Shown here piece after piece: positions 16,599-38,076 of a stretch of DNA of 64,000 nt. Position numbers and translations under genes: made by a program. The notes beneath the pieces were generated by a model that saw nothing but the letters and a program-made list of their open reading frames with translations, did not search any database and was not told the DNA's origin. Numbering within the stretch: position 1 is the stretch's first letter; every line of letters starts with the position of its first letter. The stretch is from Patescibacteria group bacterium (GTDB lineage: Bacteria; Patescibacteriota; Microgenomatia; UBA1400; PJMF01), in the NCBI GenBank assembly GCA_049322655.1, contig JBMORP010000006.1, positions 512,410 to 576,409 on the forward strand, read 5' to 3'.

Positions 16599-17351
16599 TC
16601 AATTATTCTTAGTAACTTTGGAATAGATAATTCTTAAGAGCTCCCAGAACCAGAGTACTAAAAAAATGGGAATTTGCAAGAGATATCTTCTCCACAATCT
16701 TCTGGGTTCAGTAATCAACCTAAAAAACCACTCTAAACCCAATTGTCTCAACCACTGAGGGGCTTGTTGCTTATGACCTGAAATGAAATCAAAAGCTGCC
16801 CCCACTGGCATAATATAAGCTGGGTGATTTATAAAACCTCTTAGTCTGAGTGAAGCCTCTGCTTGTTTTTTCCCTCCTAAACTAAGCCAAATAAAGTCTG
16901 GTTTGTTTTGCTCTATTTGAGCAAAATATTCATTTTCTTCGTCAGTAGTTAACTCTCTAAAAGGAGGCGATATAACACCAACAAAATTAATTGCCGGATG
17001 TTTTTGCTTAATTTTTTTAACCAATTTTGCTAATACTTCATTAGTAGAGCCATAAAAAAAATGCTTATGATTAGTCTGGGCAGTTTTTTGTAAAACCATT
17101 TCCATAACGTCTGGACCATAGATTCTCTCAGCTATAGGATCTAGTAACTTCATTAACCAAACCATGGGCATTCCATCTGGTATTAAAAAATCAATTTTTT
17201 TTAAGGTTTGTTGGGGAATTTGTAAAAACTCATTCATTGACAAGGCCGTTACAATTTTCGCTTGATCACGTTTGGAAGCTAATAAAAAATCAGTAAATTG
17301 ATCAACACTGCTGGAAACAACTTTTAATGAAAAAATTTTAAGAAAATACAC
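16599..17351 (-). CDS. WecB/TagA/CpsF family glycosyltransferase (GT26, N-acetylmannosaminyl-type transferase)
   Basis: LIPDGMPMVWL, FFYGSTNEV, FIWLSLGGKKQAEAS and EWFFRLITEPRRLWRRY are all GT26 hallmarks. Confidence 0.85.
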   Translation of the reverse strand: MYFLKIFSLKVVSSSVDQFTDFLLASKRDQAKIVTALSMNEFLQIPQQTLKKIDFLIPDGMPMVWLMKLLDPIAERIYGPDVMEMVLQKTAQTNHKHFFYGSTNEVLAKLVKKIKQKHPAINFVGVISPPFRELTTDEENEYFAQIEQNKPDFIWLSLGGKKQAEASLRLRGFINHPAYIMPVGAAFDFISGHKQQAPQWLRQLGLEWFFRLITEPRRLWRRYLLQIPIFLVLWFWELLRIIYSKVTKNN

Positions 17352-17658
17352 GATATTTAATTTTCTTTAAAAGGTTAATAACCGGGTTTATTTTTTTTGA
17401 GTCAGCCTGAATAAAACCCATTTTAATTGCTTCTTCTAACCATTGTTTAACATCTTTTTGGGCAACTGCTTTTTCCACCTTGTACTCAGTCATTACCCTA
17501 GCAATCAATTTTTCCAAAGTTTTTGGTTGATCAAGAGACAAAAAAATAAATGAAGCCAATTCATTTAAATAAAAAACATGTTTTCTGTCTGGAGAAATAA
17601 TCTTCACACCCTCTTCATCAGTATGAAAAACAAAACCACTGACTTTGGAGTAAAACAT
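17338..17658 (-). CDS. PqqD-family protein (RiPP recognition element-like, 106 aa)
   Basis: EEGVKIISPDRKHVFYLNELASFIFLSLDQPKTLEKLIARVMTEYKVEKAVAQKDVKQWLEEAIKMGFIQ fits the PqqD consensus (yy-LN-t-a-IW-ll-g-t-eeI...dv-Fl-L-G-I). Confidence 0.75.
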   Translation of the reverse strand: MFYSKVSGFVFHTDEEGVKIISPDRKHVFYLNELASFIFLSLDQPKTLEKLIARVMTEYKVEKAVAQKDVKQWLEEAIKMGFIQADSKKINPVINLLKKIKYRVFS

Positions 17659-17679: not shown

Positions 17680-17811
17680 TTAATACTTAAGAACAGCTCC
17701 AAAGGCCATTTTAACCTTAAGAGGCTTTTTATTGGTTTTCGGAGCAGAATAACCTCTTTTTTTTGATTTTTTCATATCTTTCATAGCGATAAATCCCTCA
17801 GGATCAATCAT
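17680..17811 (-). other. unannotated 43-codon ORF (MIDPEGFIAMKDMKKSKKRGYSAPKTNKKPLKVKMAFGAVLKY) between the QueC-like and PqqD-like genes; a candidate small peptide, unproven
   Basis: Found by manual translation of the minus strand. Same strand and operon spacing (21-nt gaps). No strong SD sequence seen. Confidence 0.25.
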
Positions 17812-17832: not shown

Positions 17833-18771
17833 TCAAGCCTTCATCATTAGGTCTTTAGCTTGTTTTACTAACCTATAAATCAAGGTTTTGGGCCAATACT
17901 TGGTCGGATCTACATAACCTGCCACAGCAAACTCTCTTTGCCTGGATTCACAAGTTAAACATTTATTGCCACACTGATACCAACCACTCAAATAACAACT
18001 CCAGGTTTTCTCTAACGGTAACTTATTTTTCATTCCATAAGCAATTAAATCTGCTTTGGTCATAAAACTATTCATTTCCTTTTCAAAAGCAACCGAAGCA
18101 AAATTCCAATCCCACTCAGCCAAAGCTGAACAAATGCCAAGCATAGTGGTTCTCAAGGCAGTAAAAGTCTGACTAGGCACAGCCCGACCATCACCTACAG
18201 CAACAGTACAAAAAACGTGTTTAATATCAAGTTTTTGGGTGTAATACAACTCTTTAGCATAATTAACTCCAAAAAAAGCAAATAAATAAGGAGTGGTGCC
18301 AAAAATATCAATATGAGAGATACCTTTCTTACCCAAATTTTCAAGTAAAAATGAAGGATGAAGTTTTGTCTCAATATTCTTAGCTAAACTTTCCATTTCT
18401 TTAGTTGGTAGGGCTGTTGTATATTCTTTGGGCTGATGAAATTTACCTTGAGGAAAAATCTTTTGATAAAACTTGGTAAAATAATCTACAGCCGCTTTTT
18501 CTTTTTTCCAACGCTTGGTTCCTCGGTGTAAATATAGTGGGTAAACATCAAGCTTTTTAACAAAGGTTAAATAATGCCAAGCCACCGTTGAATCTATCCC
18601 CCCAGAAAGTAATAGAACTACCGGTGTTCCTGGTTTTGGCTCTTTAAAAACATAACCTCTTTTTTTAAGAAAAAATTTTTCGACAGCTTGAATAGTTTGC
18701 CAATCTTCTAGTTTTCTTGATTTGATAAATTTTTTAAAATCTAGCAGATCTGTTTGTAATTTTTTTACCAT
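17833..18771 (-). CDS. QueC-like PP-loop ATP pyrophosphatase (7-cyano-7-deazaguanine synthase family, 312 aa, about 50 aa N-terminal extension)
   Basis: PP-loop VVLLLSGGIDST. C-terminal Zn-ribbon-like TWSCYLSGWYQCGNKCLTCESRQREF parallels QueC TCYNG..GCGQCAACHLR. Paralog of 30909-31895. Confidence 0.75.
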   Translation of the reverse strand: MVKKLQTDLLDFKKFIKSRKLEDWQTIQAVEKFFLKKRGYVFKEPKPGTPVVLLLSGGIDSTVAWHYLTFVKKLDVYPLYLHRGTKRWKKEKAAVDYFTKFYQKIFPQGKFHQPKEYTTALPTKEMESLAKNIETKLHPSFLLENLGKKGISHIDIFGTTPYLFAFFGVNYAKELYYTQKLDIKHVFCTVAVGDGRAVPSQTFTALRTTMLGICSALAEWDWNFASVAFEKEMNSFMTKADLIAYGMKNKLPLEKTWSCYLSGWYQCGNKCLTCESRQREFAVAGYVDPTKYWPKTLIYRLVKQAKDLMMKA

Positions 18772-19184
18772 AATAAATTTTTTATTTTTTTCATTATTTT
18801 ATATCTAAATACTCTGTATTTGAAAAACCTCAAAAAATAAATTCTTTGAAAAAACAGTTTATCTAAAAATATAAATAACTTCTCTTTTGCCTTACCCAAA
18901 ACTATGACTTTTTTACCAGAAAAAACAATCTGAGCAATGCCTTCTATTTGAGAAAAACTAATTTTTTGCAGTTCAAAAGCATTATCACCTTTTAAAAAAA
19001 TATCTTTACCAGTTTTCTTAATAATTCGGTGTAAAACTTTTTTATTCTTATCACTAAATAAAATTAAACTTCCTGACTGTGGATCACTCTTATCAAATGA
19101 TTTAGTAATTAAAACAATATCTTCTACTTCTATTTGTGGAGCCATACTGTCAGAAACTAATTTATAGTAAAAATTTTTCTTCAT
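18765..19184 (-). CDS. S24/S26 (LexA/signal-peptidase-like) serine peptidase domain protein without a TM or HTH
   Basis: SDSMAPQIEVEDIVLIT matches the GDSMxP-DlvlV catalytic Ser motif. KKVLHRII matches the K-R general-base region. 139 aa. Confidence 0.55.
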   Translation of the reverse strand: MKKNFYYKLVSDSMAPQIEVEDIVLITKSFDKSDPQSGSLILFSDKNKKVLHRIIKKTGKDIFLKGDNAFELQKISFSQIEGIAQIVFSGKKVIVLGKAKEKLFIFLDKLFFQRIYFLRFFKYRVFRYKIMKKIKNLLW

Positions 19185-23293: not shown

Positions 23294-24407
23294 TGAAATA
23301 CTCTCTTATAGCAGTTTTTATTCTGTTAATTTCTGCTTCTGTTAATTCGGGGAATAAAGGTAAAGAAATTGTTTGTCGAGCAAATTCTTCTGCCACAGGA
23401 AAATCTCCTTTTTTATAACCTAAAAACTTCATTGAGGGCTGGAGATGAACCGGCGTAGGGTAATAAATACCAGTCGAAATTTGTTGATCATTCATAAATT
23501 TTTCAAATTTTTTTCTGTTTTTCATTTGCACAGAAAAAACATAAAAATTTGGTTTACTGGTCGGATAGCAAAACATTCCTTGATGACCAAATTCTCTAAA
23601 AACATGATTATATTCTTCAACTATTCGCCTTCTTTTTTTGATCCATTCAGGAAAAAACTCTAGTTTTTTAAGCAAAAATGCAGCCTGAATATTGTCAATT
23701 AGTTCATTCATACCAACCAAAGAATGTAGATATTTTTTACTTTTATCTTTAATTCCATGGTGAGCATATTGTTCTGCTTTTTTTATTAATTTGGCAGAGT
23801 TACTTGTTAACACCCCAGCATTGCCCAAAGAACCCAAAGACTTGGAAGGATAAAGAGAGAAACAACCAAAGTGACCAAAAGAACCAACTTTTTTACCATT
23901 TAGTTCACTGCCATGAGCGTGTGACGCATCTTCAAGTAAAAACAACCGGTGTTGATTAGCTATCTTTTTTAATCTAAACATATCAGCCGGAACTCCATAA
24001 AGATGAACTACTAGAATTGCTTTAGTATTTTTAGTTATTTTTTCTTCCACTGACCGAGGGTCTAGATTACCTGTTTTTGGATCAACATCTGCAAAAACTG
24101 GCTTGGCACCAGCTAAAATAATAGCGTCAACCGTAGCACTAAAAGTGGCAGGGGTCGTAATAACCTCATCATGACTAGTTAGACCAAGAGATTTTAAAGC
24201 TACCCACAAACTAGCTGTTCCAGACCTAATGCCCAAAGCAAACTTACTATCATGCATTTTGGCAAATAAATTCTGAAAATCTTCAGTTTCACGCCCATAA
24301 GTAAAAGCCGACTGATCAAGTAACTTTGAAAAAATCTGCTCAAAATCTTTTTTAAGAGCTAAATGTTGTCGAGATAAATCAAACAGGGGTATTTTTTTAG
24401 ATGACAT
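23280..24407 (-). CDS. DegT/DnrJ/EryC1/StrS family PLP-dependent sugar aminotransferase
   Basis: DASHAHGSELNGKKVGSFGHFGCFSLYPSKSLGSLGNAGVLTSN is the characteristic block with the PLP-Lys in the SKSLG context. Confidence 0.85.
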   Translation of the reverse strand: MSSKKIPLFDLSRQHLALKKDFEQIFSKLLDQSAFTYGRETEDFQNLFAKMHDSKFALGIRSGTASLWVALKSLGLTSHDEVITTPATFSATVDAIILAGAKPVFADVDPKTGNLDPRSVEEKITKNTKAILVVHLYGVPADMFRLKKIANQHRLFLLEDASHAHGSELNGKKVGSFGHFGCFSLYPSKSLGSLGNAGVLTSNSAKLIKKAEQYAHHGIKDKSKKYLHSLVGMNELIDNIQAAFLLKKLEFFPEWIKKRRRIVEEYNHVFREFGHQGMFCYPTSKPNFYVFSVQMKNRKKFEKFMNDQQISTGIYYPTPVHLQPSMKFLGYKKGDFPVAEEFARQTISLPLFPELTEAEINRIKTAIREYFIGEK

Positions 24408-25152
24408 AATAATATTTACCTTGTTTTTTTAAAAATTCTATATATTCATCAATCACTTCTTCTCCACCATCACCTCTGATAATACCTTTTTCCAACCAAA
24501 TAATCCGATTGCAATTTCTTCTAATATACTCAAGCCAATGGCTAACTAAAATAATTGTTTTTCCATGTTTAGAAAACTCATTAATTTTTTTCATTGATTT
24601 TTTACGAAACTTCTCATCACCAACAGCAATTTCTTCATCCAGAATCAAAACATCAGGGTTCGAGTGGATAGCAATTGCAAAACCCAATCGCAGTGACATT
24701 CCAGAAGAGTAAGTATAAAGTGGCGCATAAATAAACTCTCCAAGGCCGCTAAACTCTACAATTGACTCAAATTTTCGTTGGATTTCATCTTTATCCATAC
24801 CAATCACCAAACCATTCAAAAAAATATTTTCCTTACCAGTTAGTTCTGGATGAAAACCAGCTCCAAGTTCAATTAGTGAAACAACTTTACCATAAGTCTT
24901 TATTTTTCCCCCGCTTTGAGTAGTTATACCTGAAGCAATTTTTAATAAAGTTGTTTTACCTGAACCATTAGAGCCAATAACCCCAATTTTTTCTCCTTTA
25001 TAAATTTCAAGAGAGACATCTTTTAAAGCAAAAAACTTTTGTCGTTTTTCTATCCCAAAAATAGTGCCAAAAAAAGTTGGTTTTTGGTGGTGCAAAACAT
25101 ATTCTTTAGATATCTTATTGATCGTAATTGCTTTACTATTCTTTTTTCTCAT
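24397..25152 (-). CDS. ABC transporter ATP-binding protein, polysaccharide/teichoic-acid export type (Wzt/TagH-like)
   Basis: Walker A GSNGSGKTT, signature YSSGMSLRLGFA, Walker B ILILDE. Confidence 0.85.
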   Translation of the reverse strand: MRKKNSKAITINKISKEYVLHHQKPTFFGTIFGIEKRQKFFALKDVSLEIYKGEKIGVIGSNGSGKTTLLKIASGITTQSGGKIKTYGKVVSLIELGAGFHPELTGKENIFLNGLVIGMDKDEIQRKFESIVEFSGLGEFIYAPLYTYSSGMSLRLGFAIAIHSNPDVLILDEEIAVGDEKFRKKSMKKINEFSKHGKTIILVSHWLEYIRRNCNRIIWLEKGIIRGDGGEEVIDEYIEFLKKQGKYYYVI

Positions 25153-25156
25153 TTAA

Positions 25157-25924
25157 CTACATCCAATCATCAAAGTTTTTGCTTTCTTTTCTAAAAACAG
25201 TTAAAGCTAAAACAAAGATTACAAAACTAATTAACAAGTTAATGACCAGCTTAATAGAAACATCTTCAATTGGATAACCAGATAAAGAAAACCTAATAAC
25301 TTCAACAGTCAGTGACAATGGGTTCAAATAAATAATTGATCTTAAAAACTTTGGAATCATCTCTAGTGAATAAACAATGGGGGTAGCGTAAAACCAAAGA
25401 GATAACATTGCTTGAACAATAAAGTTAATATCCCGGTATTTAACATTTAAACTAGAAAATAAAAGTGAGATACCAATCGTAAAAAAAAGTAATAGAAATA
25501 AGCCTGGAATTAACCAAAAAATCTTCAAAGAAAAACTCAAAGTTAGTAATGAAAATAAAGCAAAACCTATCAACAAATGAAATAAATTAGAAAGAATAAC
25601 TGAAATCACCAAAGATTCTCTAGGAAAAATGGCTTTTTTAATTAAATATCTTTCATTAACAAAAATAGGAACTGCTTTAGAAAAACTTAATGAGAAAAAA
25701 TTCCAAGTTAACAATCCAGAAAACAAAAACACAAAATAATTATCAATCTCAAATTTAATAAAAAATTGAAAAACAAAACCAATCACTAACATTTGAAACA
25801 ATGGATTTAAAATCATCCACAAAAAACCAAAAGCAGCGTGCTTATATCTTGATTTTATTTCTCTCTCTGTCAGAGTGACCGTAAAATCAAACCAATGTTT
25901 CAATTTTTTGTTGCTCTTTAGCAT
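25157..25924 (-). CDS. ABC-2 type transporter permease (Wzm/TagG-like)
   Basis: 255 aa, 6 TM, adjacent to the Wzt-like ATPase. Confidence 0.8.
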   Translation of the reverse strand: MLKSNKKLKHWFDFTVTLTEREIKSRYKHAAFGFLWMILNPLFQMLVIGFVFQFFIKFEIDNYFVFLFSGLLTWNFFSLSFSKAVPIFVNERYLIKKAIFPRESLVISVILSNLFHLLIGFALFSLLTLSFSLKIFWLIPGLFLLLFFTIGISLLFSSLNVKYRDINFIVQAMLSLWFYATPIVYSLEMIPKFLRSIIYLNPLSLTVEVIRFSLSGYPIEDVSIKLVINLLISFVIFVLALTVFRKESKNFDDWM

Positions 25925-26801: not shown

Positions 26802-27682
26802 AACATAAACTTACTAAGTTTATTAAACACTATTGATAAAAAAACGTGGAAGTAAATCGCTAACCTATCTAAAAACTGCAAGTTTTCTCTTTCCATAAAA
26901 CTATTCAAAAAATCAATTATTTTTAATCTAGAACTAGCAGTTAACTTACTTCTAAAATCTGCCCACCGTTGTTCATAAAGAGCATGAGATTTGGCTGAAA
27001 AAACTAATTTTTTGTAATACCACACAAGGTTGGTTGGATCTTTATGCTCAATATACATCTCAGCCGCATAATAGGCTTTACCACCAGCTTGTTGTAACTT
27101 CATACCCAGATCACTATCTTCACAAGCACCATTGAAATATTTAACAATTTCCTCACTAAAAAAGGTGTTTTCTTTCAAAAGAAATTTTTTATTATAAGCA
27201 ATGTTCTTATTATCCAAAATTTCCAAATCAACCACGCTATCATCCTTATTAATAGCTGATTTTTTCCAAAATTCATCAAAAATCAACGTTGTTAATGAAA
27301 AAATATTCTTTTTATAAAAAGTGTGGCTACAACCTAAAATAGCAGCTGCCTGGGGCTGAGATTTAATCGCTCTTTTAACTGAACTAAACCAATAATCTGA
27401 GGCTACACAATCATCGTCAATGAAAGCTACCCAATCATAGCTAGCCTCACGAATACCTCGGTTATAAACAAGCGGATAACCCTGAGTTTTTTCTAAAATA
27501 TATTTGACTGGAAAATTGGTATTTTTTATGAAGTTCTTGACTAACTGCTTGGTTTCATCATCAGAGTTATTATCAACTACAATTAACTCATCCAATTTTT
27601 GATCCTGAGTAGCCAAACTTCCCAGAACATGCTTTAATTCCTGAGATCTATTTCTTGTTACAATAATCGTTGAAACCTTCAT
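26798..27682 (-). CDS. glycosyltransferase family 2
   Basis: VSTIIVTRNR...IVVDNNSDDETKQ...FIDDDCV are GT2 motifs. Confidence 0.8.
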   Translation of the reverse strand: MKVSTIIVTRNRSQELKHVLGSLATQDQKLDELIVVDNNSDDETKQLVKNFIKNTNFPVKYILEKTQGYPLVYNRGIREASYDWVAFIDDDCVASDYWFSSVKRAIKSQPQAAAILGCSHTFYKKNIFSLTTLIFDEFWKKSAINKDDSVVDLEILDNKNIAYNKKFLLKENTFFSEEIVKYFNGACEDSDLGMKLQQAGGKAYYAAEMYIEHKDPTNLVWYYKKLVFSAKSHALYEQRWADFRSKLTASSRLKIIDFLNSFMERENLQFLDRLAIYFHVFLSIVFNKLSKFML

Positions 27683-27688
27683 CGCCTG

Positions 27689-28891
27689 GTGATTATAACA
27701 ACAGTCTTTATGAAAAACATTCTGTATCTTACTGAAAACTTAGATTTTTATGCTGACAGCGGGGCCAAAATTAAAACCATTAACACTTTACGCTGTTTAG
27801 ATAAAAATTTTAACATCAAAGTTTTAAGTCTCAACTCTACAAAACAACTCAATAAAAAATATCAAAAAAACTTCAAAAACCTTGATTTCATTTATCTTAC
27901 TGATCAAAAAATAGAAGTTCCAGTCAAAAAGAGACTGTTAGAAACACTTGCTAATTACTTATTGGGTAGACCATATTATTTTTTTCAATATAAAAATTTA
28001 AAATTTCAAAACTTAGTTAATGACACAATCAGAAGTTTAAAACCAGATTGTATTCATATTGACCACCTAACTATGGCTCAATATTTACCAAAAATAAAAA
28101 ATGAACAGTGGATCTACGAAGAACATAATATTGAGTATAAATTAAGACTACAAATGGCCAAATTCTCTAAAAAAATTGGTTATCATTGGTTAATCTGGCT
28201 GATAGAAAGCTTGTTTTTGTATTTTCAAGAAATAAAAATAATAAAAAAATTTGACTACATTTTTGCCATTTCCAAATCAGACCAACAATTTCTTACCAAA
28301 ATAACTAAAAAAAACAATGTTTATCTGCAAAATATTTTTATGCCTTACAAAAAAAGTAAGAAAAAAAACGAGACAATTAGTCGAACACTTCTGTTTGTTG
28401 GAGACCTTGAGTGGTTGCCAAATAGAAATGGAATAAGCTGGTTTATTAAAAAAATTCTACCCAAACTAGATAATGTCAAATTACAGATTGTTGGCAAAGT
28501 AGATCATGGTTTTAAACAACAGTATTCAAATGCAAAAATCAATTTTTTAGGGTATCAAAAAGAAATAAGTAATTTTTTTAACCAAGCTGATATTTTTATT
28601 GTCCCCTTAAAAATAGGTGAGGGAGTCAGACTAAAAATCCTTGATGCCTTTGCTAGACAAATACCAGTCATTTCCAGCAAAAATGCTATTAAAGGCTTGG
28701 CTATTAAACATAAACAAGAATTACTAATAGCAAAAAATCAATTTGAGTTTGTCTCCTTGATTAAAAAAGTTCTTGATAAAAAAATAGAAACCAATACTAT
28801 ACTAGAAAACGCATTAAGTTATTTAAAAGAAAACCACTCTGATGAAGAAAATAAAAAATTTATTAAAAGATACCAAGAAATACTTGGTTAA
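27689..28891 (+). CDS. glycosyltransferase family 4 (GT-B)
   Basis: LLFVGDLEWLPNRNGISWF and GEGVRLKILDAFARQIPVISS. Confidence 0.75.
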   Translation: MIITTVFMKNILYLTENLDFYADSGAKIKTINTLRCLDKNFNIKVLSLNSTKQLNKKYQKNFKNLDFIYLTDQKIEVPVKKRLLETLANYLLGRPYYFFQYKNLKFQNLVNDTIRSLKPDCIHIDHLTMAQYLPKIKNEQWIYEEHNIEYKLRLQMAKFSKKIGYHWLIWLIESLFLYFQEIKIIKKFDYIFAISKSDQQFLTKITKKNNVYLQNIFMPYKKSKKKNETISRTLLFVGDLEWLPNRNGISWFIKKILPKLDNVKLQIVGKVDHGFKQQYSNAKINFLGYQKEISNFFNQADIFIVPLKIGEGVRLKILDAFARQIPVISSKNAIKGLAIKHKQELLIAKNQFEFVSLIKKVLDKKIETNTILENALSYLKENHSDEENKKFIKRYQEILG

Positions 28892-30338
28892 TTTTAAAAA
28901 AAATAAAACAATTCTTACCCAAGTAGTTATTTTTTTTATATCCCTCTCTATTTCTCTTCCTTTGCTTATCAAACCAATGATTGCGGAGGGAGATGCTTAT
29001 GTGAGATCTTATCTTGCTTTTGAAGATTTCCAAGACCAAAGACTTTTCAAGTCTTATGGTGGGACATGGCTTCCATTTCATAAAATAATAATAGGTTTGC
29101 CACTTTATATTTATAATAATTACTTTTTAACCCCAAGATTAATTACTTTAATCATTAGTAGTTTAACAGTTTGTTTGATTTATATTCTGAGCATAGAACT
29201 TTTCAAAAATTATAAACAAAAGAAAATAATTGCTTTAATAACAGTTGGAATTTTTTTACTATTTCCACAAAGAATATTTTTATCAACCCAAACTCTCACT
29301 GAACCAGTTTTTACTTTTTTCTTTATTTTGGGAATTTATTTATTAATAAAGAATAAACTACTAACCAGTACAATTTTTTTAAATATCTCACATGGCATCA
29401 GATACGAGTCATGGTTTTTAACTCCAATAATATTTTATTACCTTTATATAAACAAAAAAATATCAATCAAACAAAAAGTTCTTTATGGAAGTTCACTACT
29501 TTTGTTCCCCACTTATTGGTTTCTTTTAAACTTAGTAAATAATGGTAGCGGTCTTGCTTTTTTTTCAGAAAAATATCAAATTGCTCAAAATGCTGGTTTT
29601 ATTCAAGAATATTGGAATTTCCCGCTATCATTTAATGTCTGGCTAAATAATTCTTTTGATTTAATTGGTTTAATTGGCTTAATTTCTTTAGTACAGGGAA
29701 TTATTTTTTATGCAAAAAATAAAAAAACAAATACTAGTGGGATTTTTTTCTTATCTACAAGTATTTATTTATTTAGTCTTTTAGTTTTGCAAGTTTTCAT
29801 GGGAACCATGGAGTGGTTTCCTCATAGATACTTATATATTCCACTCACTCTTTTTTTCCCATTTATAGCTTATGGTCTACTAATCACACTTAAAAAAATA
29901 AACAAAAAAAACTTAATAATCTTCTTAGCTTTACTACCAATTACTTTAATTGATATTTTTTATGTTTATCAACATACACATATTATTAGTGCTCCAGATA
30001 TGAAATATCCAATAGATAAAGAAAAAAAATTAAACGAAATTTTATATTTTTATAAAAAAATTTCTATGAATGAAAATGATATAACTTTATATATTTATAA
30101 AGAAGATGAAAATAGTTGGCTATACCCTCACTTTGTTTATTTCAACCAAGTAACTGAAGAAAGCATCCCATCTATAGAAATAGAAGATCTTAAAAATAAA
30201 GTTTATTTAAATGAGACAAAAAATTATTATTTTGTTTTTGAAAAACCAGCTTTTACCATTATAAAAAAAGATCAATTTGGTCAAGAGATATTTTCTAATT
30301 CTTCTTTTTCAATCACTAATCTAAAAAATGATAAATAA
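28842..30338 (+). CDS. GT-C fold membrane glycosyltransferase (ArnT/PMT-like, GT39/GT83-type), 498 aa
   Basis: About 11 TM helices, with an acidic first extracytoplasmic loop (EGDAYVRSYLAFEDFQD). A C-terminal soluble domain follows the last TM. Confidence 0.55.
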   Translation: MKKIKNLLKDTKKYLVNFKKNKTILTQVVIFFISLSISLPLLIKPMIAEGDAYVRSYLAFEDFQDQRLFKSYGGTWLPFHKIIIGLPLYIYNNYFLTPRLITLIISSLTVCLIYILSIELFKNYKQKKIIALITVGIFLLFPQRIFLSTQTLTEPVFTFFFILGIYLLIKNKLLTSTIFLNISHGIRYESWFLTPIIFYYLYINKKISIKQKVLYGSSLLLFPTYWFLLNLVNNGSGLAFFSEKYQIAQNAGFIQEYWNFPLSFNVWLNNSFDLIGLIGLISLVQGIIFYAKNKKTNTSGIFFLSTSIYLFSLLVLQVFMGTMEWFPHRYLYIPLTLFFPFIAYGLLITLKKINKKNLIIFLALLPITLIDIFYVYQHTHIISAPDMKYPIDKEKKLNEILYFYKKISMNENDITLYIYKEDENSWLYPHFVYFNQVTEESIPSIEIEDLKNKVYLNETKNYYFVFEKPAFTIIKKDQFGQEIFSNSSFSITNLKNDK

Positions 30339-30912
30339 AAAACTGATCAAAAAATTAACTGAAGAGATTCTAAAATTTAGAGAAGCTAGAAACTGGAAAC
30401 AATACCATTCTCCAAAAAACATGGCTATTTCTTTCTATATAGAAACAGCTGAATTGGCAGAATACTTTCAATATGGTTTTGATGAAGTTTTTGAACAAAC
30501 AAAAAAATATCAACAGAAAGTTGCTGACGAAATCATTGATGTTTTATGGTGGACTCTATTAATTGCTTATGAATATAGTATTGAACTAAATAAAAATAAG
30601 GCAACTAAATCAAAAAATATTTTTAAACCAAGAAATTCTTTAATGAGAATCTTTAACAGTATTGGGAAAATTAGTAACGAACTAATTAAATCACAAGATA
30701 TCATCAAAAAAAAATATAAAACTAAAAATCCAAAAATCCTTGAAAAAGAATTGCAAAATATTTTTAATCAAGTTGTAAGTTTTGCCAAATTTATTAACAT
30801 GGACATTGAAAAGGAATTTTATAGAAAGCTAGATAAAAATAAAAAAAGGTATCCAATCAAAAAAGCTTCTTTTTTAAAAGTTTTTAGTGTTAAACTATAT
30901 AAAAATATATGA
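30328..30912 (+). CDS. MazG-like all-alpha nucleoside triphosphate pyrophosphohydrolase domain protein
   Basis: ILKFREARNW.QYHSPKNMAISFYIETAELAEYFQ......QKVADEIIDVLWWTLLIAYE fits the MazG/dCTPase EExxE...E/D pattern. Confidence 0.65.
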   Translation: MINKKLIKKLTEEILKFREARNWKQYHSPKNMAISFYIETAELAEYFQYGFDEVFEQTKKYQQKVADEIIDVLWWTLLIAYEYSIELNKNKATKSKNIFKPRNSLMRIFNSIGKISNELIKSQDIIKKKYKTKNPKILEKELQNIFNQVVSFAKFINMDIEKEFYRKLDKNKKRYPIKKASFLKVFSVKLYKNI

Positions 30913-31895
30913 AAAAAGATAGTATCCTCCCACAAAATACTCCAACAAAAACACTCAAAGAAATTGCTAAAAATCCATTAGAAGATATTGAATATATAAA
31001 AAATATTGAAAAACAATTGAAAAAAAGACGTGGCTATTCATTTAAAATGCCAAAACCAAAGACTCCAGTTATTTTAATGTTTTCTGGGGGGTTGGATAGC
31101 ACTACCATTTGCGATATTTTACTTAGAAAATACCAGTTACAAGTTTATCCACTCCATCTTAGAAGGGGTCAAATTAGGATGCCAATCGAAGAAAAAGCGG
31201 TAGCTGATCTTTCAAAGCATTTTACCAAAGAGTTTCCTAAACTTTACCACCAGCCACAAATAGTTAATGCCTTTATTCCACCATTAGAGTTTAGGTTTGA
31301 TGTAACCGCTCATGCTGAAGTAAGAGCTAATAAAAAAAACAAGCAATGGCTGGGTATACCTATGTATACATCGATGGCAGCTGAATATGCTGTTAACTAC
31401 GCTATTTTTCTAGAAAAAACTAAAGGTATAAAAATTAGAGACATATTTTTTGGAATTATGAGCAAAGATGGTTTGGTGATGAAATATGAAACTCTCACTT
31501 TTTTGAGATCAATGACAAATCATATTTGTCAATTAATGGGTGACTATTCTTGGCAAGTATCATCGCTTCCAGTAGAAAAAGAGCTTGGTTATTACTTTGA
31601 TAAGGAACCATTAATTAAATGGTGCGCCAAATACAATGTCCCAATTCATAAATCATTCAGTTGCTTAGATCCTCACTACTATCACTGTGGCAGTTGTTAC
31701 TACTGTCAAAGAAGAAAAAATATCACTAAAGAAATTGGTGAAAAAGATAATACTTTTTACATAGATGAACAGCCATTTCAAAGGCTAGTTAGATTATTAG
31801 ACAAAATACTTTATGTTAAAGAATATACTAAATTTTTCATCAAAATTAATAAAACATTTTTGAAATATTTCATTAAATACTTCAATGGAAGATAA
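30909..31895 (+). CDS. QueC-like PP-loop ATP pyrophosphatase (328 aa); paralog of 17833-18771
   Basis: KRRGYSFKMPKPKTPVILMFSGGLDST aligns with KKRGYVFKEPKPGTPVVLLLSGGIDST of the paralog. C-terminal Cys cluster SFSCLDPHYYHCGSCYYCQRR. Confidence 0.75.
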   Translation: MKKDSILPQNTPTKTLKEIAKNPLEDIEYIKNIEKQLKKRRGYSFKMPKPKTPVILMFSGGLDSTTICDILLRKYQLQVYPLHLRRGQIRMPIEEKAVADLSKHFTKEFPKLYHQPQIVNAFIPPLEFRFDVTAHAEVRANKKNKQWLGIPMYTSMAAEYAVNYAIFLEKTKGIKIRDIFFGIMSKDGLVMKYETLTFLRSMTNHICQLMGDYSWQVSSLPVEKELGYYFDKEPLIKWCAKYNVPIHKSFSCLDPHYYHCGSCYYCQRRKNITKEIGEKDNTFYIDEQPFQRLVRLLDKILYVKEYTKFFIKINKTFLKYFIKYFNGR

Positions 31896-32712
31896 CATGC
31901 AAATCAATAAACTACAAAATATTTATAATAAAATTCAGTTGAATCTGGGTGTTAAAACCTTTTTTGAAAATAATTTTCAAAAAACTAAGTTATTTTTTGA
32001 CCAAAATTTAATTTTTCCCCTGTCTAAAAAAATAAATGATTATTTATTTGATCAAGTTATTGCTCATTACGGAGCAGACTATAAATGGGATGACCAAAAA
32101 AGCCAAAACATCAATAAAAAAACCAAAAATTATGGTTACGGTTTATTTCATTACTCAATGATTAAAAACCAAAAACCAAAAAGAGTTTTGATCGTTGGTT
32201 CAATGTTTGGTTTTATTCCATACATGATGGCTAAAGCTTGTGAAGAAAATGGTTTTGGTAAGGTTGATTTTGTTGATGCTAGTTTTGACTTGAAAGATGA
32301 AGATGATAAAAATACCCATTATTTTGGCCACGGTTTTTGGAACAAGAAAACAGCCAAAAAACATTTTTCTTACCTACTCAATCCAAGATATATTGATACT
32401 CATGTGATGACCACTGATGAATTTGCTAAGAAATATCCTCAAAACAACTATGACTATATTTGTTTGGATGGTGACCACTCTTATAAAGGAGCAAAACTAG
32501 ATTTAAAATTATTTTGGTCCAAACTCAACAAAGAAGGCTTCATTTCTTTTCATGATATTCACCTAAAAAAAGAGTTTTTAAAAAAAGAAGCCAGAGAAAT
32601 GGATTTGGAATTGGGATATAGGAAAATTTGGCAAGAATTGATAAAAACTAAGAAATACAAATTTGAATTATCCAATCACTATTCAGGATTAGGATTTTTA
32701 CAGAAATTATAG
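31885..32712 (+). CDS. class I SAM-dependent methyltransferase-like protein (CmcI/TylF-like fold); paralog of 37378-38076
   Basis: VLIVGSMFGFIP...VDFVDA...YDYICLDGDHSYKGAKLDLKLFWSKLNKEGFISFHDI matches the D-G/S-DH-S/T and FHD motifs of the CmcI/TylF O-methyltransferase-like families. Confidence 0.55.
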   Translation: MEDNMQINKLQNIYNKIQLNLGVKTFFENNFQKTKLFFDQNLIFPLSKKINDYLFDQVIAHYGADYKWDDQKSQNINKKTKNYGYGLFHYSMIKNQKPKRVLIVGSMFGFIPYMMAKACEENGFGKVDFVDASFDLKDEDDKNTHYFGHGFWNKKTAKKHFSYLLNPRYIDTHVMTTDEFAKKYPQNNYDYICLDGDHSYKGAKLDLKLFWSKLNKEGFISFHDIHLKKEFLKKEAREMDLELGYRKIWQELIKTKKYKFELSNHYSGLGFLQKL

Positions 32713-32714
32713 AT

Positions 32715-33971
32715 ATGTTTGGAATAAAAAGTTACTTTTCAAAAAAAATTAACTTAAGATTCAAAAAAATTGTTAGTGAAACTCAACTTTCAAAAAAAAG
32801 TTTATCATTTATTGATAAAAAAATAACTGAAATTGCTATTTTTAGAAAACTAACAAATGAAAACTGGGATAAACAAATTCAATCACCAGTATCTTCCTAT
32901 ACTAACCCTGAATCTAGAAAAATAGTCAAAGTTATTAGTAAATTTAATCCAAATAACCTAGGAAACTGGTCAGAAGAAAAAAGTTTTCATCTGTCTGGAT
33001 TATTGGAAAAAAAAATAATTGATTATTTAGTTAAACTTCTAAAAGCAAAGAACAAAGAAATGGGTGGATATTTAACTAGTGGCGGAACTGAGGCAAATAT
33101 TTTTGCTATGTGGTTGGGTCGAAATTCACTTCAAAAATCAATTAAAACCAATCAAATCATAGTTTTAAAAACTAGTCTCACCCATTATTCAATTGAAAAA
33201 GCTACTGATTTAGTTGGATTGAATTATACAGATATCTCAATTGATTCCAAATTTTGGGGAATGAGCCTAAAAAATTTAGAAGAGACAATCAAAAAAGAAT
33301 ATAAAAAAGGCAAAAAAGGATTCTTAATTCCATTAACACTAGGTTACACCATTACTGGATCGGATGATCCAATCAAAGAAATCAATAATCTAATCAATAA
33401 ATTAAAAAATCAATATAAAGAAATAAAGTTTTTTTGTTGGATTGATGCGGCATTTTCTGGAATAGTAAAACCATTTTTAGAAGAAAACTTCACTCCATTT
33501 TCCTATAACAATATTCAGGCTTTCCTCACTGACTTTCATAAAGTTATGGCTGTTCCTTATCAATCAGGAATAATCATCTATAGAAAAAATCTAATAAAAA
33601 ATATAGAAAATGAAGTTACTTATATTGGTAGAAAAGATACAACTTTGCTTGGTTCAAGATCAGGAAGTTCAGCTATTATCACTTGGTTTACCCTTATCTC
33701 CTTAGGACAAGATAAAATCATAAAAATAATTGAACAAGCTATAAAAGAAAAAAATATTTTTATTAAACAAATTCAAAAAAAAATACCAAATATAAAAATA
33801 ATTAATCAAAAAAGTAATATCCAAATTGGTTTAGTTGCAAATAGCAAAAATCAAAAAAATATTTTAAATAAAATGAACTTAGAAGAAACAAAACAGAAAA
33901 TTTTGCTTAATGGGAAAAATAAAAAAATCTCTATTTATAAAATATATTTTTTGCCATTTTTTAAAAACTAA
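32715..33971 (+). CDS. group II pyridoxal-phosphate-dependent decarboxylase (MfnA/GadB/HDC-like fold)
   Basis: LTSGGTEANIFAM (TSGGTEAN motif) and DFHKVMAVPYQSG (D-x-HK PLP-lysine motif). Confidence 0.7.
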   Translation: MFGIKSYFSKKINLRFKKIVSETQLSKKSLSFIDKKITEIAIFRKLTNENWDKQIQSPVSSYTNPESRKIVKVISKFNPNNLGNWSEEKSFHLSGLLEKKIIDYLVKLLKAKNKEMGGYLTSGGTEANIFAMWLGRNSLQKSIKTNQIIVLKTSLTHYSIEKATDLVGLNYTDISIDSKFWGMSLKNLEETIKKEYKKGKKGFLIPLTLGYTITGSDDPIKEINNLINKLKNQYKEIKFFCWIDAAFSGIVKPFLEENFTPFSYNNIQAFLTDFHKVMAVPYQSGIIIYRKNLIKNIENEVTYIGRKDTTLLGSRSGSSAIITWFTLISLGQDKIIKIIEQAIKEKNIFIKQIQKKIPNIKIINQKSNIQIGLVANSKNQKNILNKMNLEETKQKILLNGKNKKISIYKIYFLPFFKN

Positions 33972-34825
33972 ATTTCTTTGAAATCAATTATTTTAGCTTG
34001 ATCTCCTCCTATAGAAAAAGAGTTTAAATATACTTTAATGTCACTACCAATTCCAAGTTTAGTACCATCCAATAAATAATAATTATCAGCATTTTTATAA
34101 GCTTTTAATCTTAAATTAATTGTTAAATCTCTATAATCTGGATCAATAACCTTAATATTTTCTCCCCTAATATCAGAAAACTCATAATTAGAATGAATTT
34201 CACTGGTAAAATCCATTACTTCAGCTAAAATCCTGCCTTGTTCATCACTCATGATCATCCCCTTTTCTAATTTTGCAGCCACATCTAAATCAACCCACTT
34301 TACTTTAACCAAAACAGCCAAATCAACTTGGTCTGAAATCAATTTATCACCAATAAAAGAAATTACTCCATCGACATTGTTTTTCCCAAAAGTCAAATTT
34401 AAACTTCTGCCTACTTCAATAGGCTCAGAATTAAAAAGATACAGGCCTCTTTTGTTATCAAAATATGAACGTACATCCAAAACCACAAAAATAGTACTTC
34501 TACCCTCTCCATCTTCAAATGTTTGCTTATCAACAACTTCAGCAATTGTTTCGCCAAAAGTGTTTTTAGCCACATCACCAATAGCTAAATCATTAATTAA
34601 CCAATAACTAGTTTGTTTTTCAGTTTGCCACCACCATTCTTCATTAGAGATAAAAAGGCCAACTCGCACCCATTCTTCTTTTTTGATTAATTTTGAAATA
34701 ATAAGACTTGAAAATATAGCAAAAACAATCAAAATAATTAAAAAATCTAACCTTTTTAATTTTTTTGAAAAAGAAACAACACTAGTGAAAAATTTTTTAC
34801 TAAACATATCAAAACAATCCTTCAT
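33968..34825 (-). CDS. N-terminal TM-anchored secreted protein with an EWWW motif (DUF4330-like); paralog of 15743-16597
   Basis: See the entry for 15743-16597. Confidence 0.55.
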   Translation of the reverse strand: MKDCFDMFSKKFFTSVVSFSKKLKRLDFLIILIVFAIFSSLIISKLIKKEEWVRVGLFISNEEWWWQTEKQTSYWLINDLAIGDVAKNTFGETIAEVVDKQTFEDGEGRSTIFVVLDVRSYFDNKRGLYLFNSEPIEVGRSLNLTFGKNNVDGVISFIGDKLISDQVDLAVLVKVKWVDLDVAAKLEKGMIMSDEQGRILAEVMDFTSEIHSNYEFSDIRGENIKVIDPDYRDLTINLRLKAYKNADNYYLLDGTKLGIGSDIKVYLNSFSIGGDQAKIIDFKEI

Positions 34826-36260: not shown

Positions 36261-37381
36261 AAAAACTTTTTATTATTCCTTTTGAACTTCCCTGGGATTG
36301 GACAGCTGACTATCAGCGACAGACTATTTTTGAGCTAAACAAAAATAATAACAAAGTTTTGGCTTACATGAATAAAGATAGTTATTTATTTTTAAAAGTA
36401 AAACAAAAAAAAAACTATCCCAATATAAAAAATACTGATTTTTATCAACCACGAAATTTGCTGCCTTTTCAACGTTTTGAGCTTGTTCAATCTCTGAATC
36501 AGCTAATTAACCTGATAATAATCAGGTTAAAAAACCTTAACAAAAAGATTTATCTTTGGTCTTTTGATCCAGATTTTTATTTGTTGAATTACTTAGCAAG
36601 GTTTTTGGGGATAATCACTATTTACGATTGTGTTGATTATCACAGCCATAACAATCAAACAATTAACCAACAAATAAGAACTAAAGAAGATAAAATCATT
36701 AAAAATTCTAAATATTTCTTTGTTAACTCAAGAGAACTAGCTAAAATTCATAGCAAAAAAAGAAAACCAACTGCAATTGTCCCACAAGGTTTTGATTTAA
36801 CTACTTTTGAAACAAAATTAAAAAAACTAGCTTTTTTTAATAAAATTAAAAAACCTATTATTGGTTATGTTGGAGGTATAAACTATCGACTCGATTATGA
36901 TTTGTTAATTAAGTTAGCCAAAAACAATCCTAATTGGCAATTTGTTTTTTGGGGACCAATACAAAAACAAGATGACGATCAACAAAATCAAGTAGAAGAG
37001 AAACAAAGAACTCTTTTTTCACTAGCAAATGTTTCTGTTAGTCAAAGTGAACGTAAAAATATCCCCGCCGTAATTAATCACTTTGATGTTTGTCTAATTC
37101 CCTACAAAACTAATTATCTATTTAACAAACATTGTTACCCAATGAAAATTTTTGAGTATTTTTACCTAAAAAAACCAATCATTTCGGCTCCAATTAATGA
37201 GTTAAAAAGATTTCCTGAAAAACTAATTTCAATTGCTAAAGACTACTCATCTTGGCAAAAAAAAATTGAAGAAAAAATAGAAAAAAAAGAATTAGACACA
37301 GTTAAAAAAACTAAGCAAAGGCTAGCTTTTGAAAATTCTTGGAAAAATAAAATTTCTAATATTTTAGAAAAAATTAATTAA
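36257..37381 (+). CDS. glycosyltransferase, GT-B fold (family 1/4-like); paralog of 9351-10457
   Basis: Whole-length similarity to the 9351-10457 product; C-terminal CYPMKIFEYFYLKKPIIS. Confidence 0.55.
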   Translation: MKKLFIIPFELPWDWTADYQRQTIFELNKNNNKVLAYMNKDSYLFLKVKQKKNYPNIKNTDFYQPRNLLPFQRFELVQSLNQLINLIIIRLKNLNKKIYLWSFDPDFYLLNYLARFLGIITIYDCVDYHSHNNQTINQQIRTKEDKIIKNSKYFFVNSRELAKIHSKKRKPTAIVPQGFDLTTFETKLKKLAFFNKIKKPIIGYVGGINYRLDYDLLIKLAKNNPNWQFVFWGPIQKQDDDQQNQVEEKQRTLFSLANVSVSQSERKNIPAVINHFDVCLIPYKTNYLFNKHCYPMKIFEYFYLKKPIISAPINELKRFPEKLISIAKDYSSWQKKIEEKIEKKELDTVKKTKQRLAFENSWKNKISNILEKIN

Positions 37382-38076
37382 CTGATATTTTTCTGTAAAA
37401 CACCTAAACCAGAACCTAAAAACTCTAAAGAAAAAGCATTTTTCTTCGATATTTTTTGCCAAAGTTTCCAAACTCCATACTCTCCTTCTGGTTTTTTACC
37501 TTTAATAGAGATATCGTGAAAAGCAATAAATCCGCCTGCCCTTAACATTGGCCAAAAAAGTTCATAATCTCTGGAAACTCCTTTAAAAGAGTGGTCACCA
37601 TCTATATAGATGTAATCATATTTAACTTTTTTATTGGCAATTTTTTTAAATTCTTCAGTAGTCATGACATGCAAAGTAATAAAGTTTTGTAAGTCAAATC
37701 TTAGAAAAGCAGTTTTGCCAGCTTCTGTTTTCCAATAAGCCTCTCCAGTCCAATGATTGGCGTCTTCATCCCCAAAACCAGCGTCAACAAAATCAACATG
37801 ACCAAATCCGTTATCCTTACACGCTTGAGCCAAAATACCAGGAATATAGCCATGTCTAGAGCCAATACATAACACATTCCTTGGCTTAATTGCTCTTAAT
37901 AAACCATAGTGAACCCAGCCATAGCCTAAATCTGCTGTAGTAAAATTAGCTCTATGACCATATTCATCAACTCTAAATTGATGCATTAATTTTTTGATTT
38001 TTATTTCAGAAACAAGAGATTTCCCTTCTTTAATTAAAGAGATTATTTTTTTTATTTTAGTTTTTATTCCTAACAT
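37378..38076 (-). CDS. class I SAM-dependent methyltransferase-like protein (CmcI/TylF-like); paralog of 31885-32712
   Basis: VLCIGSRHGYIP...VDFVDAGFGDED...YDYIYIDGDHSFKGVSRDYELFWPMLRAGGFIAFHDI. Confidence 0.55.
   Translation of the reverse strand: MLGIKTKIKKIISLIKEGKSLVSEIKIKKLMHQFRVDEYGHRANFTTADLGYGWVHYGLLRAIKPRNVLCIGSRHGYIPGILAQACKDNGFGHVDFVDAGFGDEDANHWTGEAYWKTEAGKTAFLRFDLQNFITLHVMTTEEFKKIANKKVKYDYIYIDGDHSFKGVSRDYELFWPMLRAGGFIAFHDISIKGKKPEGEYGVWKLWQKISKKNAFSLEFLGSGLGVLQKNIS

Follow-up and report, generated by a model that had tools for sequence, protein, structure and literature searches.

A QueC-like enzyme cassette in a patescibacterial glycan locus as a candidate part of an RRE-dependent peptide-modification module

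The four-gene cassette and its enzymes

A stretch of 64 kb from a Patescibacteria group bacterium (Microgenomatia, UBA1400, PJMF01; assembly GCA_049322655.1, contig JBMORP010000006.1, positions 512,410 to 576,409), hereafter called the window, was analysed around four adjacent genes, A to D, which encode a nucleoside triphosphate (NTP) pyrophosphatase, a QueC-like ATP pyrophosphatase, a methyltransferase and an amino-acid decarboxylase. The reading which we favour, with confidence about evenly balanced, is that A to D form the co-transcribed tailoring cassette of a conserved module, mainly of Patescibacteria, which would modify a peptide in the manner of the peptides that are made on the ribosome and modified after translation (RiPPs) and depend on a RiPP recognition element (RRE). 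In the best-supported reading of the sequence, the core half of this module would lie at 17.3-19.2 kb of the window and the exporter at 24.4-25.9 kb. The cassette consists of the following genes.

30328..30912, plus strand: A, all-alpha NTP pyrophosphatase, MazG/DCTPP1-like, 194 aa (Pfam, PDB sequence matches, metal motifs)
30909..31895, plus strand: B, QueC-fold PP-loop/Zn-ribbon ATP pyrophosphatase ("B-type"), 328 aa (Pfam QueC, AlphaFold2 (AF2)/Foldseek, motifs)
31885..32712, plus strand: C, cation-dependent class I S-adenosylmethionine (SAM) methyltransferase of the Methyltransf_24 family (MT24), 275 aa (Pfam PF13578, AF2/Foldseek)
32715..33971, plus strand: D, group-II (fold type I) pyridoxal phosphate (PLP)-dependent amino-acid decarboxylase, 418 aa (Pfam Pyridoxal_deC, motifs)

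All four open reading frames (ORFs) were recovered where an earlier note on this DNA had placed them, and its domain calls for A, B, C and D were borne out by Pfam, motifs and PDB matches. It had also counted three overlaps, of which those between A and B (4 nt, ATGA) and between B and C (11 nt) are real, whereas C and D are separated by a gap of 2 nt, the TAG stop of C ending at 32712 and being followed by AT and by the ATG of D at 32715. The order of the four genes is kept in a syntenic relative (L039).

Protein A scored 27.3 bits with Pfam MazG (cutoff 22) and also matched MazG-like and dUTPase_2. Its best PDB sequence matches were an archaeal pyrophosphatase (4qgp, 1.4e-13) and DCTPP1/RS21-C6 (1e-8), aligned in two pieces around an insertion, and A has an inserted segment at about residues 97-132. 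The metal motifs E39-x2-E42-x2-E45 (ETAELAE at 39) and E68-x2-D71 (EIID at 68) are present, so A has the Pfam gathering score, the ExxExxE and the ExxD by which the MazG/DCTPP1 family is recognised.

Protein C matched PF13578 with 51.8 bits (cutoff 26.3, E 1.7e-13) and has a long N-terminal helical extension in front of a glycine-rich SAM loop (VGSMFG at 104) and a metal/SAM motif (DGDH at 195). The AF2 model (pLDDT 88.7) gave Foldseek matches to COMT/CCoAOMT-like O-methyltransferases, TrmR and MeT1 with E about 4e-9; score, SAM loop, DGDH and fold together place C among the Methyltransf_24 or cation-dependent class I O-methyltransferases. A paralog of C lies further downstream.

37378..38076, minus strand: C2, second Methyltransf_24 protein (Pfam PF13578, 66 bits)

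C2 is the best match to the MT24 protein adjoining the QueC-like gene in seven loci of other genomes (L002, L006, L014, L019, L025, L030 and L031), and the C2 type is the MT24 type most often found beside QueC-like genes in other loci.

Protein D belongs to the group-II decarboxylases by its score with Pyridoxal_deC (PF00282, 73.7 bits against a cutoff of 27, E 1.5e-20) and by its motifs, SGGTEAN at 122, DAA at 244 with the Asp for the pyridine nitrogen, and HK at 275 with the PLP lysine. PDB relatives are the histidine decarboxylase (HDC) 7erv, the plant serine decarboxylase 8jij and MfnA. D was rejected as an equivalog of HDC (NF002748, 172 against a cutoff of 305) and of MfnA (TIGR03812, 137.4 against 299.4).

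The QueC-like enzymes and the peptide genes

Protein B matched Pfam QueC with E 5e-12, and its AF2 model (pLDDT 89) had QueC (2pg3) and Cap9 (9nto_B) as top Foldseek matches. A match to Asn_synthase (E 0.014) was below the gathering score and covered only the PP-loop. The second QueC-like protein of the window, B2, is 33% identical to B (E 6e-46) and belongs to a clade whose members adjoin a candidate precursor peptide, a PqqD protein and a peptidase.

In the alignment with Escherichia coli QueC, only the PP-loop and the four zinc-binding cysteines are retained in the family of B and B2. The PP-loop reads SGGLDS in B (59-64) and SGGIDS in B2 (56-61), and SGGxDS is invariant in the family alignment; the cysteines C252, C260, C263 and C266 of B, aligned to C188, C197, C200 and C203 of E. 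coli, are likewise invariant, with a one-residue insertion in the motif of B2 (CGNKC). The substrate motifs of QueC are YxQxHxxE, VPxRN and YPDC, and Y35, R99 and Y131 are essential (PMC13082051); the family reads (L/I)RRGQxR..EE, IP(M/L)Y(T/S) and xDG at these positions, with Y35, R99 and Y131 all replaced. QueC and ToyM share with the family the SGGxDS loop, the C(x)7-8CxxCxxC zinc motif and the overall fold, but the family has lost the substrate motifs and has two extra parts, some 50 conserved residues at the N-terminus (..LED..I..IE..L.K.RGYxFKMPKP) and a helix at the C-terminus, which in B is basic/hydrophobic and, judged by eye, possibly amphipathic.

Ordinary queuosine or preQ0 synthesis, with B and B2 acting as QueC, would agree with the Pfam QueC match and with the conserved PP-loop and Zn-Cys4. 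The QueC equivalog model TIGR00364, however, gave only 33.7 bits for B and 26.1 bits for B2 against a cutoff of 150.3, the three essential residues are not conserved, the gene context is unrelated to queuosine synthesis, and a phmmer search with E. coli QueC, QueD, QueE and QueF found no match at E <= 1 among the ORFs of the 64-kb window, which is part of a genome of at least 652 kb. The earlier note had named preQ0 synthases accompanied by queD/queE/queF as the finding that would return these genes to ordinary metabolism, and neither the motifs nor the scores nor the window's gene content agree with it. This explanation is therefore given next to no credence: by their motifs and model scores, B and B2 are not preQ0 synthases.

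B2 was found at the coordinates given before, on the minus strand, which had not been stated. Its surroundings had been described as a different gene context, whereas they appear to be the other half of the same conserved module, with the exporter genes 5 kb away from the group formed by the QueC-like, precursor, PqqD and peptidase genes.

17338..17658, minus strand: PqqD-family RRE, 106 aa (Pfam PqqD, 51 bits, cutoff 23.4)
17680..17784, minus strand: candidate precursor peptide, MKDMKKSKKRGYSAPKTNKKPLKVKMAFGAVLKY (small ORF between B2 and PqqD)
17833..18771, minus strand: B2, paralogous QueC-like PP-loop enzyme ("B2-type"), 312 aa (similarity to B, clade)
18765..19184, minus strand: soluble signal-peptidase-I-like peptidase (S24/S26, endoplasmic reticulum/archaeal type), 139 aa (Pfam Peptidase_S24 and S26)
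24397..25152, minus strand: TagH/Wzt-like ATPase of an ATP-binding cassette (ABC) exporter (NCBIfam TagH, 209 bits, cutoff 320; Wzt, 170 bits)
25157..25924, minus strand: Wzm/TagG-like ABC-2 permease (Pfam ABC2_membrane)

The candidate precursor of the window (31-34 aa, with alternative starts at 17811 and 17775) is preceded, 9 nt upstream of its ATG (17784), by a GAGGGA Shine-Dalgarno sequence. It belongs with a family of at least 17 small ORFs, with lengths of 24-46 aa and mostly with a visible Shine-Dalgarno sequence, which occupy the corresponding place in other loci. There an ORF of 24-35 aa immediately precedes PqqD on its strand, for example MKKYTKPSLKKSKIKINFAFTIVKT in L009, MKKKSYNKPSVKKVALVAVAFAEPI in L016 and MQAYQAPSCEKIVISVLCGENETIE in L019. 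Three tandem paralogs in alternating frames were present in L023 (950-1177), namely MKKYAKPTDKRLKIKVVMSLLAVK, MKKYRKPMDRRMKIKVILPLMTVK and MKKYIKPSDKRNKIVIKKLLMAAKM, and two further small ORFs (30 and 46 aa, YxxPxI) lie in L041, a locus with QueC::PqqD fusions. The shared pattern is M(K/Q)..YxxPx(L/I/V/C/D/T)(K/E)K, after which come hydrophobic residues and a short tail that varies between the peptides. When this pattern was written as a regular expression and run over 363 kb in six frames, 13 of the 16 matches were at the expected position and 3 were elsewhere. No second copy was found near A-D in the window.

YxxPxL is the leader motif that is bound by the PqqD-like protein B1 in the lasso peptides of actinobacteria (PMC6784204). 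The best NCBIfam match of the PqqD protein in the window was the lasso-peptide PqqD chaperone model, below its cutoff. After the leader motif follow 10-13 residues with no conserved acidic position. By eye, the candidate precursors look like signal peptides in miniature: an N-region rich in Lys leads into a hydrophobic stretch and a small-x-small site, and 2-7 variable residues form the tail. This shape matches the signal-peptidase-I-like protease associated with them. The protease of the window has no N-terminal transmembrane anchor; its NCBIfam matches, archaeal-type signal peptidase I and SipW, were both under cutoff, and the motifs SDSMAP (SDSMxP), HR and GDN are invariant across its orthologs.

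Conserved neighbourhoods, fusions and the glycan setting

A word-indexed search for homologs of the QueC-like proteins returned 11 matches, and an exhaustive profile search returned hundreds, with 250 representatives at 50% identity having E < 1e-30 and 870 having E < 1e-10. About 30 non-redundant loci with 34 QueC-like genes were examined (numbered with the prefix L), mostly from Patescibacteria (Berkelbacteria, Gottesmanbacteria, Microgenomates and Saccharibacteria). Within 5 kb of the 34 QueC-like genes the following partners were counted.

MT24 methyltransferase: 19 of 34
S24/S26-like peptidase: 17 of 34
PqqD protein: 15 of 34
TagH/Wzt-like ABC ATPase with ABC-2 permease: 14 of 34
Group-II decarboxylase: 13 of 34

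Where the QueC-like gene is single (L009, L017, L019, L031), it has the tailoring genes on one side and the peptide genes on the other, in the following orders.

L009: decarboxylase, MT24, QueC, precursor, PqqD, ABC ATPase fused to S26 peptidase
L017: S26 peptidase, PqqD, precursor, QueC, MT24, decarboxylase, MT24
L019 and L031: MT24, decarboxylase, QueC, precursor, PqqD, S26 peptidase, ABC

The succession of QueC, precursor, PqqD, S26 peptidase (on the opposite strand) and ABC genes is kept in nine loci (L006, L009, L015, L016, L019, L025, L027, L030 and L031). In L025 an additional radical-SAM/SPASM gene lies between decarboxylase and MT24, and in L001 PqqD and peptidase adjoin a QueC-like protein that shares 46% identity with B. 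Two QueC-like paralogs in a split arrangement, as in the window, are kept in L039. A co-located precursor, RRE, modifying enzymes, protease and exporter, by which RiPP gene clusters are generically recognised, are thus all present.

Domain fusions join the same partners. Of 188 family sequences, 35 are fusions of the QueC-like protein with PqqD, and these come from the B side as well as from the B2 side; a further protein (P0138) is a fusion of a QueC-like enzyme with an S24 peptidase, adjoining a decarboxylase. The ABC ATPases of L009 (9312-10355, minus strand) and L015 (11368-12759, minus strand) carry an S26 peptidase domain at the C-terminus, in which the signal-peptidase-I-like motifs SxSMxP, HR and GD(N/S) are intact. 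Some Wzt proteins bear a glycan-cap-binding module at the C-terminus, which is the position of the peptidase domain in these two ATPases. These fusions suggest that a peptide-binding domain and a peptidase are working partners of the QueC-like enzyme.

Gene displacements were seen as well. An Orn/Arg/diaminopimelate-type (fold-III) PLP decarboxylase takes the position of the group-II decarboxylase in L015, a spermidine-synthase-like or other class I methyltransferase stands in place of MT24 in L016, and SerA-like and HAD-phosphatase genes are placed between the decarboxylase and the QueC-like gene in L014. Taken with the fusions, these displacements suggest that a decarboxylase and a SAM enzyme are functional requirements of the module.

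Several further gene sets were observed near the QueC-like genes. L041 (1-9100) contains two QueC::PqqD fusions, a free PqqD, ScmC, NTP_transf_5, a UbiE-like methyltransferase, an FAD_binding_4 oxidoreductase and a dCMP/cytidine deaminase, and Bac_transf, DUF4330 and WecG adjoin the QueC::PqqD genes and the two YxxPxI small ORFs. The name ScmC is taken from the SynChlorMet cassette (SCM), according to the description of ScmD in TIGR04248. NTP_transf_5 proteins with an N-terminal S24/S26-like domain were found in L012 (8583-9911, minus strand) and L001 (5240-6538, plus strand), where they co-occur with ScmC/HprK-like proteins and QueC-like genes, as in the uncharacterised "HPr-rel-A" context of Haft. 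In L025 (1088-3826, minus strand) and L027 (4146-6887, minus strand), the ABC-2 exporter and the QueC-like gene have between them a gene for a protein of about 912 aa, which begins with a class I methyltransferase domain and continues with a long unassigned part; these two proteins may be chain-terminator-like enzymes.

In the window, the module genes are set in a glycan locus, as the earlier note had recognised, with GT1, GT2, three Wzy_C, WecG, DegT, epimerase and Wzm/Wzt-like genes at ~5.5-38 kb. The GC content of this region is 27-30%, and that of the flanks is 32-46%. Two genes directly precede A, and their overlaps had not been noted in the earlier description.

27689-28891, plus strand: GT1 glycosyltransferase (Pfam; overlapping stop/start codons with the next gene)
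28842-30338, plus strand: 498-aa polytopic membrane protein (overlaps A; no significant family match)

The membrane protein gene shares 11 nt with A, and its own start lies within the GT1 gene, so the transcription unit probably starts upstream of A, near 27689. The 498-aa protein is absent from the syntenic L039 and is therefore not a core part of the module but a lineage-specific insertion into the operon. The GT2 gene (minus strand) and the GT1 gene (plus strand) diverge from start codons that are only 6 nt apart (27682-27689), so that both promoters must sit within neighbouring coding sequence.

Proposed peptide modification and its alternatives

The neighbourhoods of the homologs point to a ribosomal peptide as the substrate, through the YxxPx(L/I/V) small ORF, PqqD, the peptidase and the fusions, and not to the glycan uronic acid which had been suggested before. 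Of that earlier chemistry, the carboxylate-activating PP-loop enzyme, the amine from the decarboxylase and the methyltransferase were retained, and the logic of amine supply is strengthened by the non-homologous decarboxylase replacement in L015; the uronic-acid acceptor found no direct support.

For the peptide, a route of five steps could be drawn. PqqD would bind the YxxPxPhi leader, as suggested by the motif, the PqqD assignment and the QueC::PqqD fusions. The QueC-fold PP-loop enzyme would then adenylate a carboxylate, in keeping with its fold and SGGxDS loop; adenylation is the chemistry common to QueC, Cap9/QatC, asparagine synthetase and the lasso cyclases. The target would most probably be the carboxylate at the peptide's C-terminus, since this is the sole acid group common to all precursors. 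An amine produced by D could displace adenosine monophosphate (AMP) and form an amide, to which the decarboxylase replacement lends support, while a primary amide or a nitrile would be equally permissible, given the chemistry of QueC itself and the precedent of PesC (PMC13060819). The MT24 enzymes may methylate the product, judging from their fold. Finally the peptidase would cut after the small-x-small site 2-7 residues from the C-terminus, as the precursor pattern suggests, and the ABC transporter would export the product, in line with the ABC::peptidase fusions. B may carry out another amidation that uses ATP, or may perform the same reaction with a different substrate, and A could remove a toxic nucleotide by-product or supply a nucleoside monophosphate (NMP).

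A number of observations weigh against this peptide route. Every chemical step in it is inferred, and the small ORFs were called from conservation alone. The motif of the window precursor is YSAPKT with a 3-residue insertion, an imperfect fit to the pattern. B adjoins neither the precursor nor PqqD, and the two halves are 12 kb apart in the window. QueC-like and MT24 genes, with a decarboxylase except in L013, occur in L002, L013, L014, L020 and L036 with no PqqD or precursor found within 7-10 kb. The module genes are interleaved with the sugar genes WecG, Wzy_C, DegT and GT1 in single operons, and the ABC ATPase scores best as TagH/Wzt. Pyrimidine-nucleotide enzymes (MazG, Ham1, HD 5'-nucleotidase, ThyA-like, dCMP deaminase) recur beside family members, which plain peptide amidation would leave unexplained. 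Because of the distance of B, the loci having only the enzyme trio, the interleaved sugar genes and the nucleotide enzymes, a glycan model and a nucleotide model were kept as rivals.

In the glycan model, which is held to be unlikely, B would adenylate a uronic or ulosonic acid of a glycopolymer or of its nucleotide- or lipid-linked precursor, the amine from D would amidate it, C would methylate it and Wzm/Wzt would export it, all independently of a peptide. Such a model would agree with the probable co-transcription of A-D with GT1 and a polytopic membrane protein, with the TagH/Wzt-like ATPase, and with the surroundings of the loci with the trio only, which are WecG and an ABC-2 exporter in L036 and L002 and, in L013, GT1 with a PIG-L deacetylase and a CapD-like dehydratase. 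It would also fit the fusion of an MT24 homolog to a Bac_transf initiating transferase (P0075) and the resemblance of C to the sugar 3-O-methyltransferase MeT1, among other enzymes. The SerA-like and HAD-phosphatase genes adjoining the D homolog in L014 recall the serine-phosphate/ethanolamine-phosphate route by which glucuronic acid (GlcA) of the Campylobacter jejuni capsule is amidated, the set for which is Cj1435-Cj1438. Known glycan amidation systems share with the window the glycan locus and the set of PLP decarboxylase, phosphatase and ATP-dependent amide ligase, but the C. jejuni amidoligase is of the ATP-grasp and not of the PP-loop kind, and neither the C. jejuni system nor those of WbpG/PseA have an RRE, a precursor peptide or a peptidase. 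In the family studied here, in contrast, fusion or adjacency to PqqD and peptidase is pervasive among B-side and B2-side members alike, and no UDP-sugar 6-dehydrogenase or other uronic-acid-forming gene was found among the scanned genes of the window. WbpG-type sugar amidotransferases (PF06508 cluster 5) have the signature SGGxDSxY with CxxC(x)6CxC, in reversed order relative to QueC (PMC13082051); by motif inspection only, B has no such signature, reading SGGLDSTT without the Tyr and carrying a QueC-type C-terminal Cys4.

The nucleotide model is judged quite improbable. In it, A would make an NMP from a (d)CTP-like NTP, and B would act on a pyrimidine nucleotide or base, activating either a ring carbonyl, as GMP synthase or TilS do, or a ring carboxylate, as QueC or Cap9 do; the activated group would be joined to the amine of D or to the peptide, yielding a modified nucleotide, a nucleobase-peptide or a peptidyl-nucleotide conjugate. 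The DCTPP1-like A overlaps B (ATGA), and in other loci the place of A is taken by unrelated nucleotide hydrolases, which are Ham1 in L002 and L021 and, in L020, an HD/YfbR-like 5'-nucleotidase. The locus L041, with its QueC::PqqD fusions, contains a dCMP deaminase, the nucleobase O-methyltransferase TrmR is among the enzymes that C resembles, and the sole QueC-family enzymes known to modify proteins, Cap9 and QatC, attach a nucleobase. A sister subclade further combines ThyA-like, QueC-like, Ham1 and AAA_17 kinase genes (L003, L011, L021, L028, L035), with the QueC-like protein and Ham1 fused in P0139. This subclade, however, shares only 31-37% identity with B, and MT24, decarboxylase and PqqD are all missing from it. 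No nucleotide enzyme accompanies the module in L009, L016, L017, L019, L030 and L031, which are most of the precursor-bearing loci, so the module does not need one as a core part, and the window yielded no genes of a carboxy-nucleobase pathway (queD/E). The fusion with Ham1 in P0139 was considered as a direct link between a pyrophosphatase and B and was rejected; as it belongs to the separate ThyA/kinase subclade, it supports the nucleotide model only.

The subclade loci themselves (L003, 7255-10051; L035, 6265-9048, with P0139; L028, 864-3156; L011, 9307-10852; L021, 160-2182) vary in gene order, and their ThyA-like protein scored 40 bits against a thymidylate synthase cutoff of 174. The set of ThyA-like, QueC-like, Ham1 and kinase genes looks like an undescribed pathway of NMP-level pyrimidine or purine conversion or modification.

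A combined possibility, regarded as a long shot, is that the QueC-like ligases join the mini-peptide to a cell-wall glycopolymer or to a pyrimidine-nucleotide-derived group, the peptide being no free natural product but serving as a cap or export handle that is read and clipped by the signal-peptidase domain. If such a peptide-polymer conjugate were true, a ribosomal peptide would act as a leader for polysaccharide export in Patescibacteria.

To return to the peptide-modification module, a close counterpart in logic is the lasso-peptide pathway, which likewise uses a short precursor with a YxxPxL-type leader, a stand-alone PqqD-type protein, a carboxylate-activating PP-loop enzyme, a leader protease and an ABC exporter. 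The lasso PP-loop enzyme is of the asparagine-synthetase type and its protease a transglutaminase-like Cys enzyme, whereas the module has a QueC fold with a Zn ribbon and a Ser/His signal-peptidase-like protease, and adds a decarboxylase and MT24. The lasso core has >= ~15 residues with Asp/Glu at 7-9, but the candidate precursors have 10-13 residues after the motif and no conserved Asp/Glu, which makes a lariat impossible. A true lasso peptide was therefore rejected, the cyclase and protease families being wrong and the core too short.

Among QueC-family proteins, Cap9 (type IV cyclic-oligonucleotide-based antiphage signalling system, CBASS) and QatC (QatABCD) conjugate 7-carboxy-7-deazaguanine to a protein N-terminus (PMC13082051). 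Cap9 was the best PDB sequence match of B (E 0.025), with a structural TM of 0.71 normalised to Cap9. The substrate motifs of QueC and Cap9 (Y/FxQ(x)5E, YPDC) are not conserved in the family, however, and its partners are instead a PqqD RRE, a peptidase, MT24 and a decarboxylase. Defence of the Qat or CBASS kind was rejected, as B scored 19.5 bits with QatC against a cutoff of 280 and no CD-NTase, Cap10, QatA, QatB or QatD (TatD-like) partner was found among the domains of the scanned neighbours.

PesC of the nitrilobacillin pathway, an asparagine-synthetase-like enzyme, turns the C-terminal carboxylate of a RiPP into a nitrile (PMC13060819). It belongs to the same superfamily of ATP-dependent adenine-nucleotide alpha-hydrolases and acts on a RiPP C-terminus, as proposed here, and the chemistry of QueC (carboxylate to amide to nitrile) would permit a PesC-like outcome. 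[quoted passage not shown]

Two further likenesses concern single parts of the module. Microcin C is a ribosomal peptide-nucleotide conjugate made with a methyltransferase-fold enzyme, the SAM-dependent aminocarboxypropyl transferase MccD, and with a PLP decarboxylase, the N-terminal domain of MccE; these have no sequence kinship to C or D, so the likeness is an analogy only, and its activating enzyme MccB is E1/ThiF-like and not of the PP-loop type, with an exporter of the major facilitator superfamily. Peptidase-containing ABC transporters (PCATs) have a C39 peptidase domain at the N-terminus of a half-transporter, and the ATPases of L009 and L015 resemble them in having a peptidase fused to the cytoplasmic ABC part, whereas the domain here is S26-like and C-terminal on a separate Wzt/TagH-like ATPase.

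In full-text searches of the literature library, no description was found which links QueC-family proteins with PqqD or an RRE, or which describes this module; the 2026 survey of PF06508 (ten clusters, eight characterised) and both RRE-mining papers do not mention the module or the family. The logic of RiPPs and protein-directed QueC paralogs are already known, and the module is potentially a new RiPP class, mainly of Patescibacteria. If this is true, a widespread module made up of a QueC-fold ATP-pyrophosphatase, an RRE, a signal-peptidase-like protease and a Wzt-like exporter would define such a class by its QueC-like enzyme, which, following Cap9 and QatC, would be a third case of the QueC scaffold being turned to proteins or peptides, and possibly a new biocatalyst for peptide C-termini. 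Patescibacteria (candidate phyla radiation, CPR) are ultra-small and make up a very large, almost uncultured share of bacterial diversity, and their surface and secreted molecules are essentially unknown; the module would then offer a first handle on surface decoration or signalling by these episymbionts, and the unannotated small-ORF family gives a directly testable substrate.

Some minor features of the window were also recorded. Rfam, scanned at the gathering threshold, gave only rRNA and tRNAs, and a riboswitch as a clue to the metabolite was rejected since none was found in the window. A partial 23S rRNA lies at the start of the window (1-2167, minus strand), and tRNA genes at 2392-2465 (minus strand) and 42124-42196 (plus strand). 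The three Wzy_C paralogs in the region of the glycan genes and the peptide module are located at 5574-8048, 19181-21181 and 34683-36260. Two DUF4330 genes are present (15743-16597 and 33968-34825), and DUF4330 recurs near the module in L013, L015, L019 and L041.

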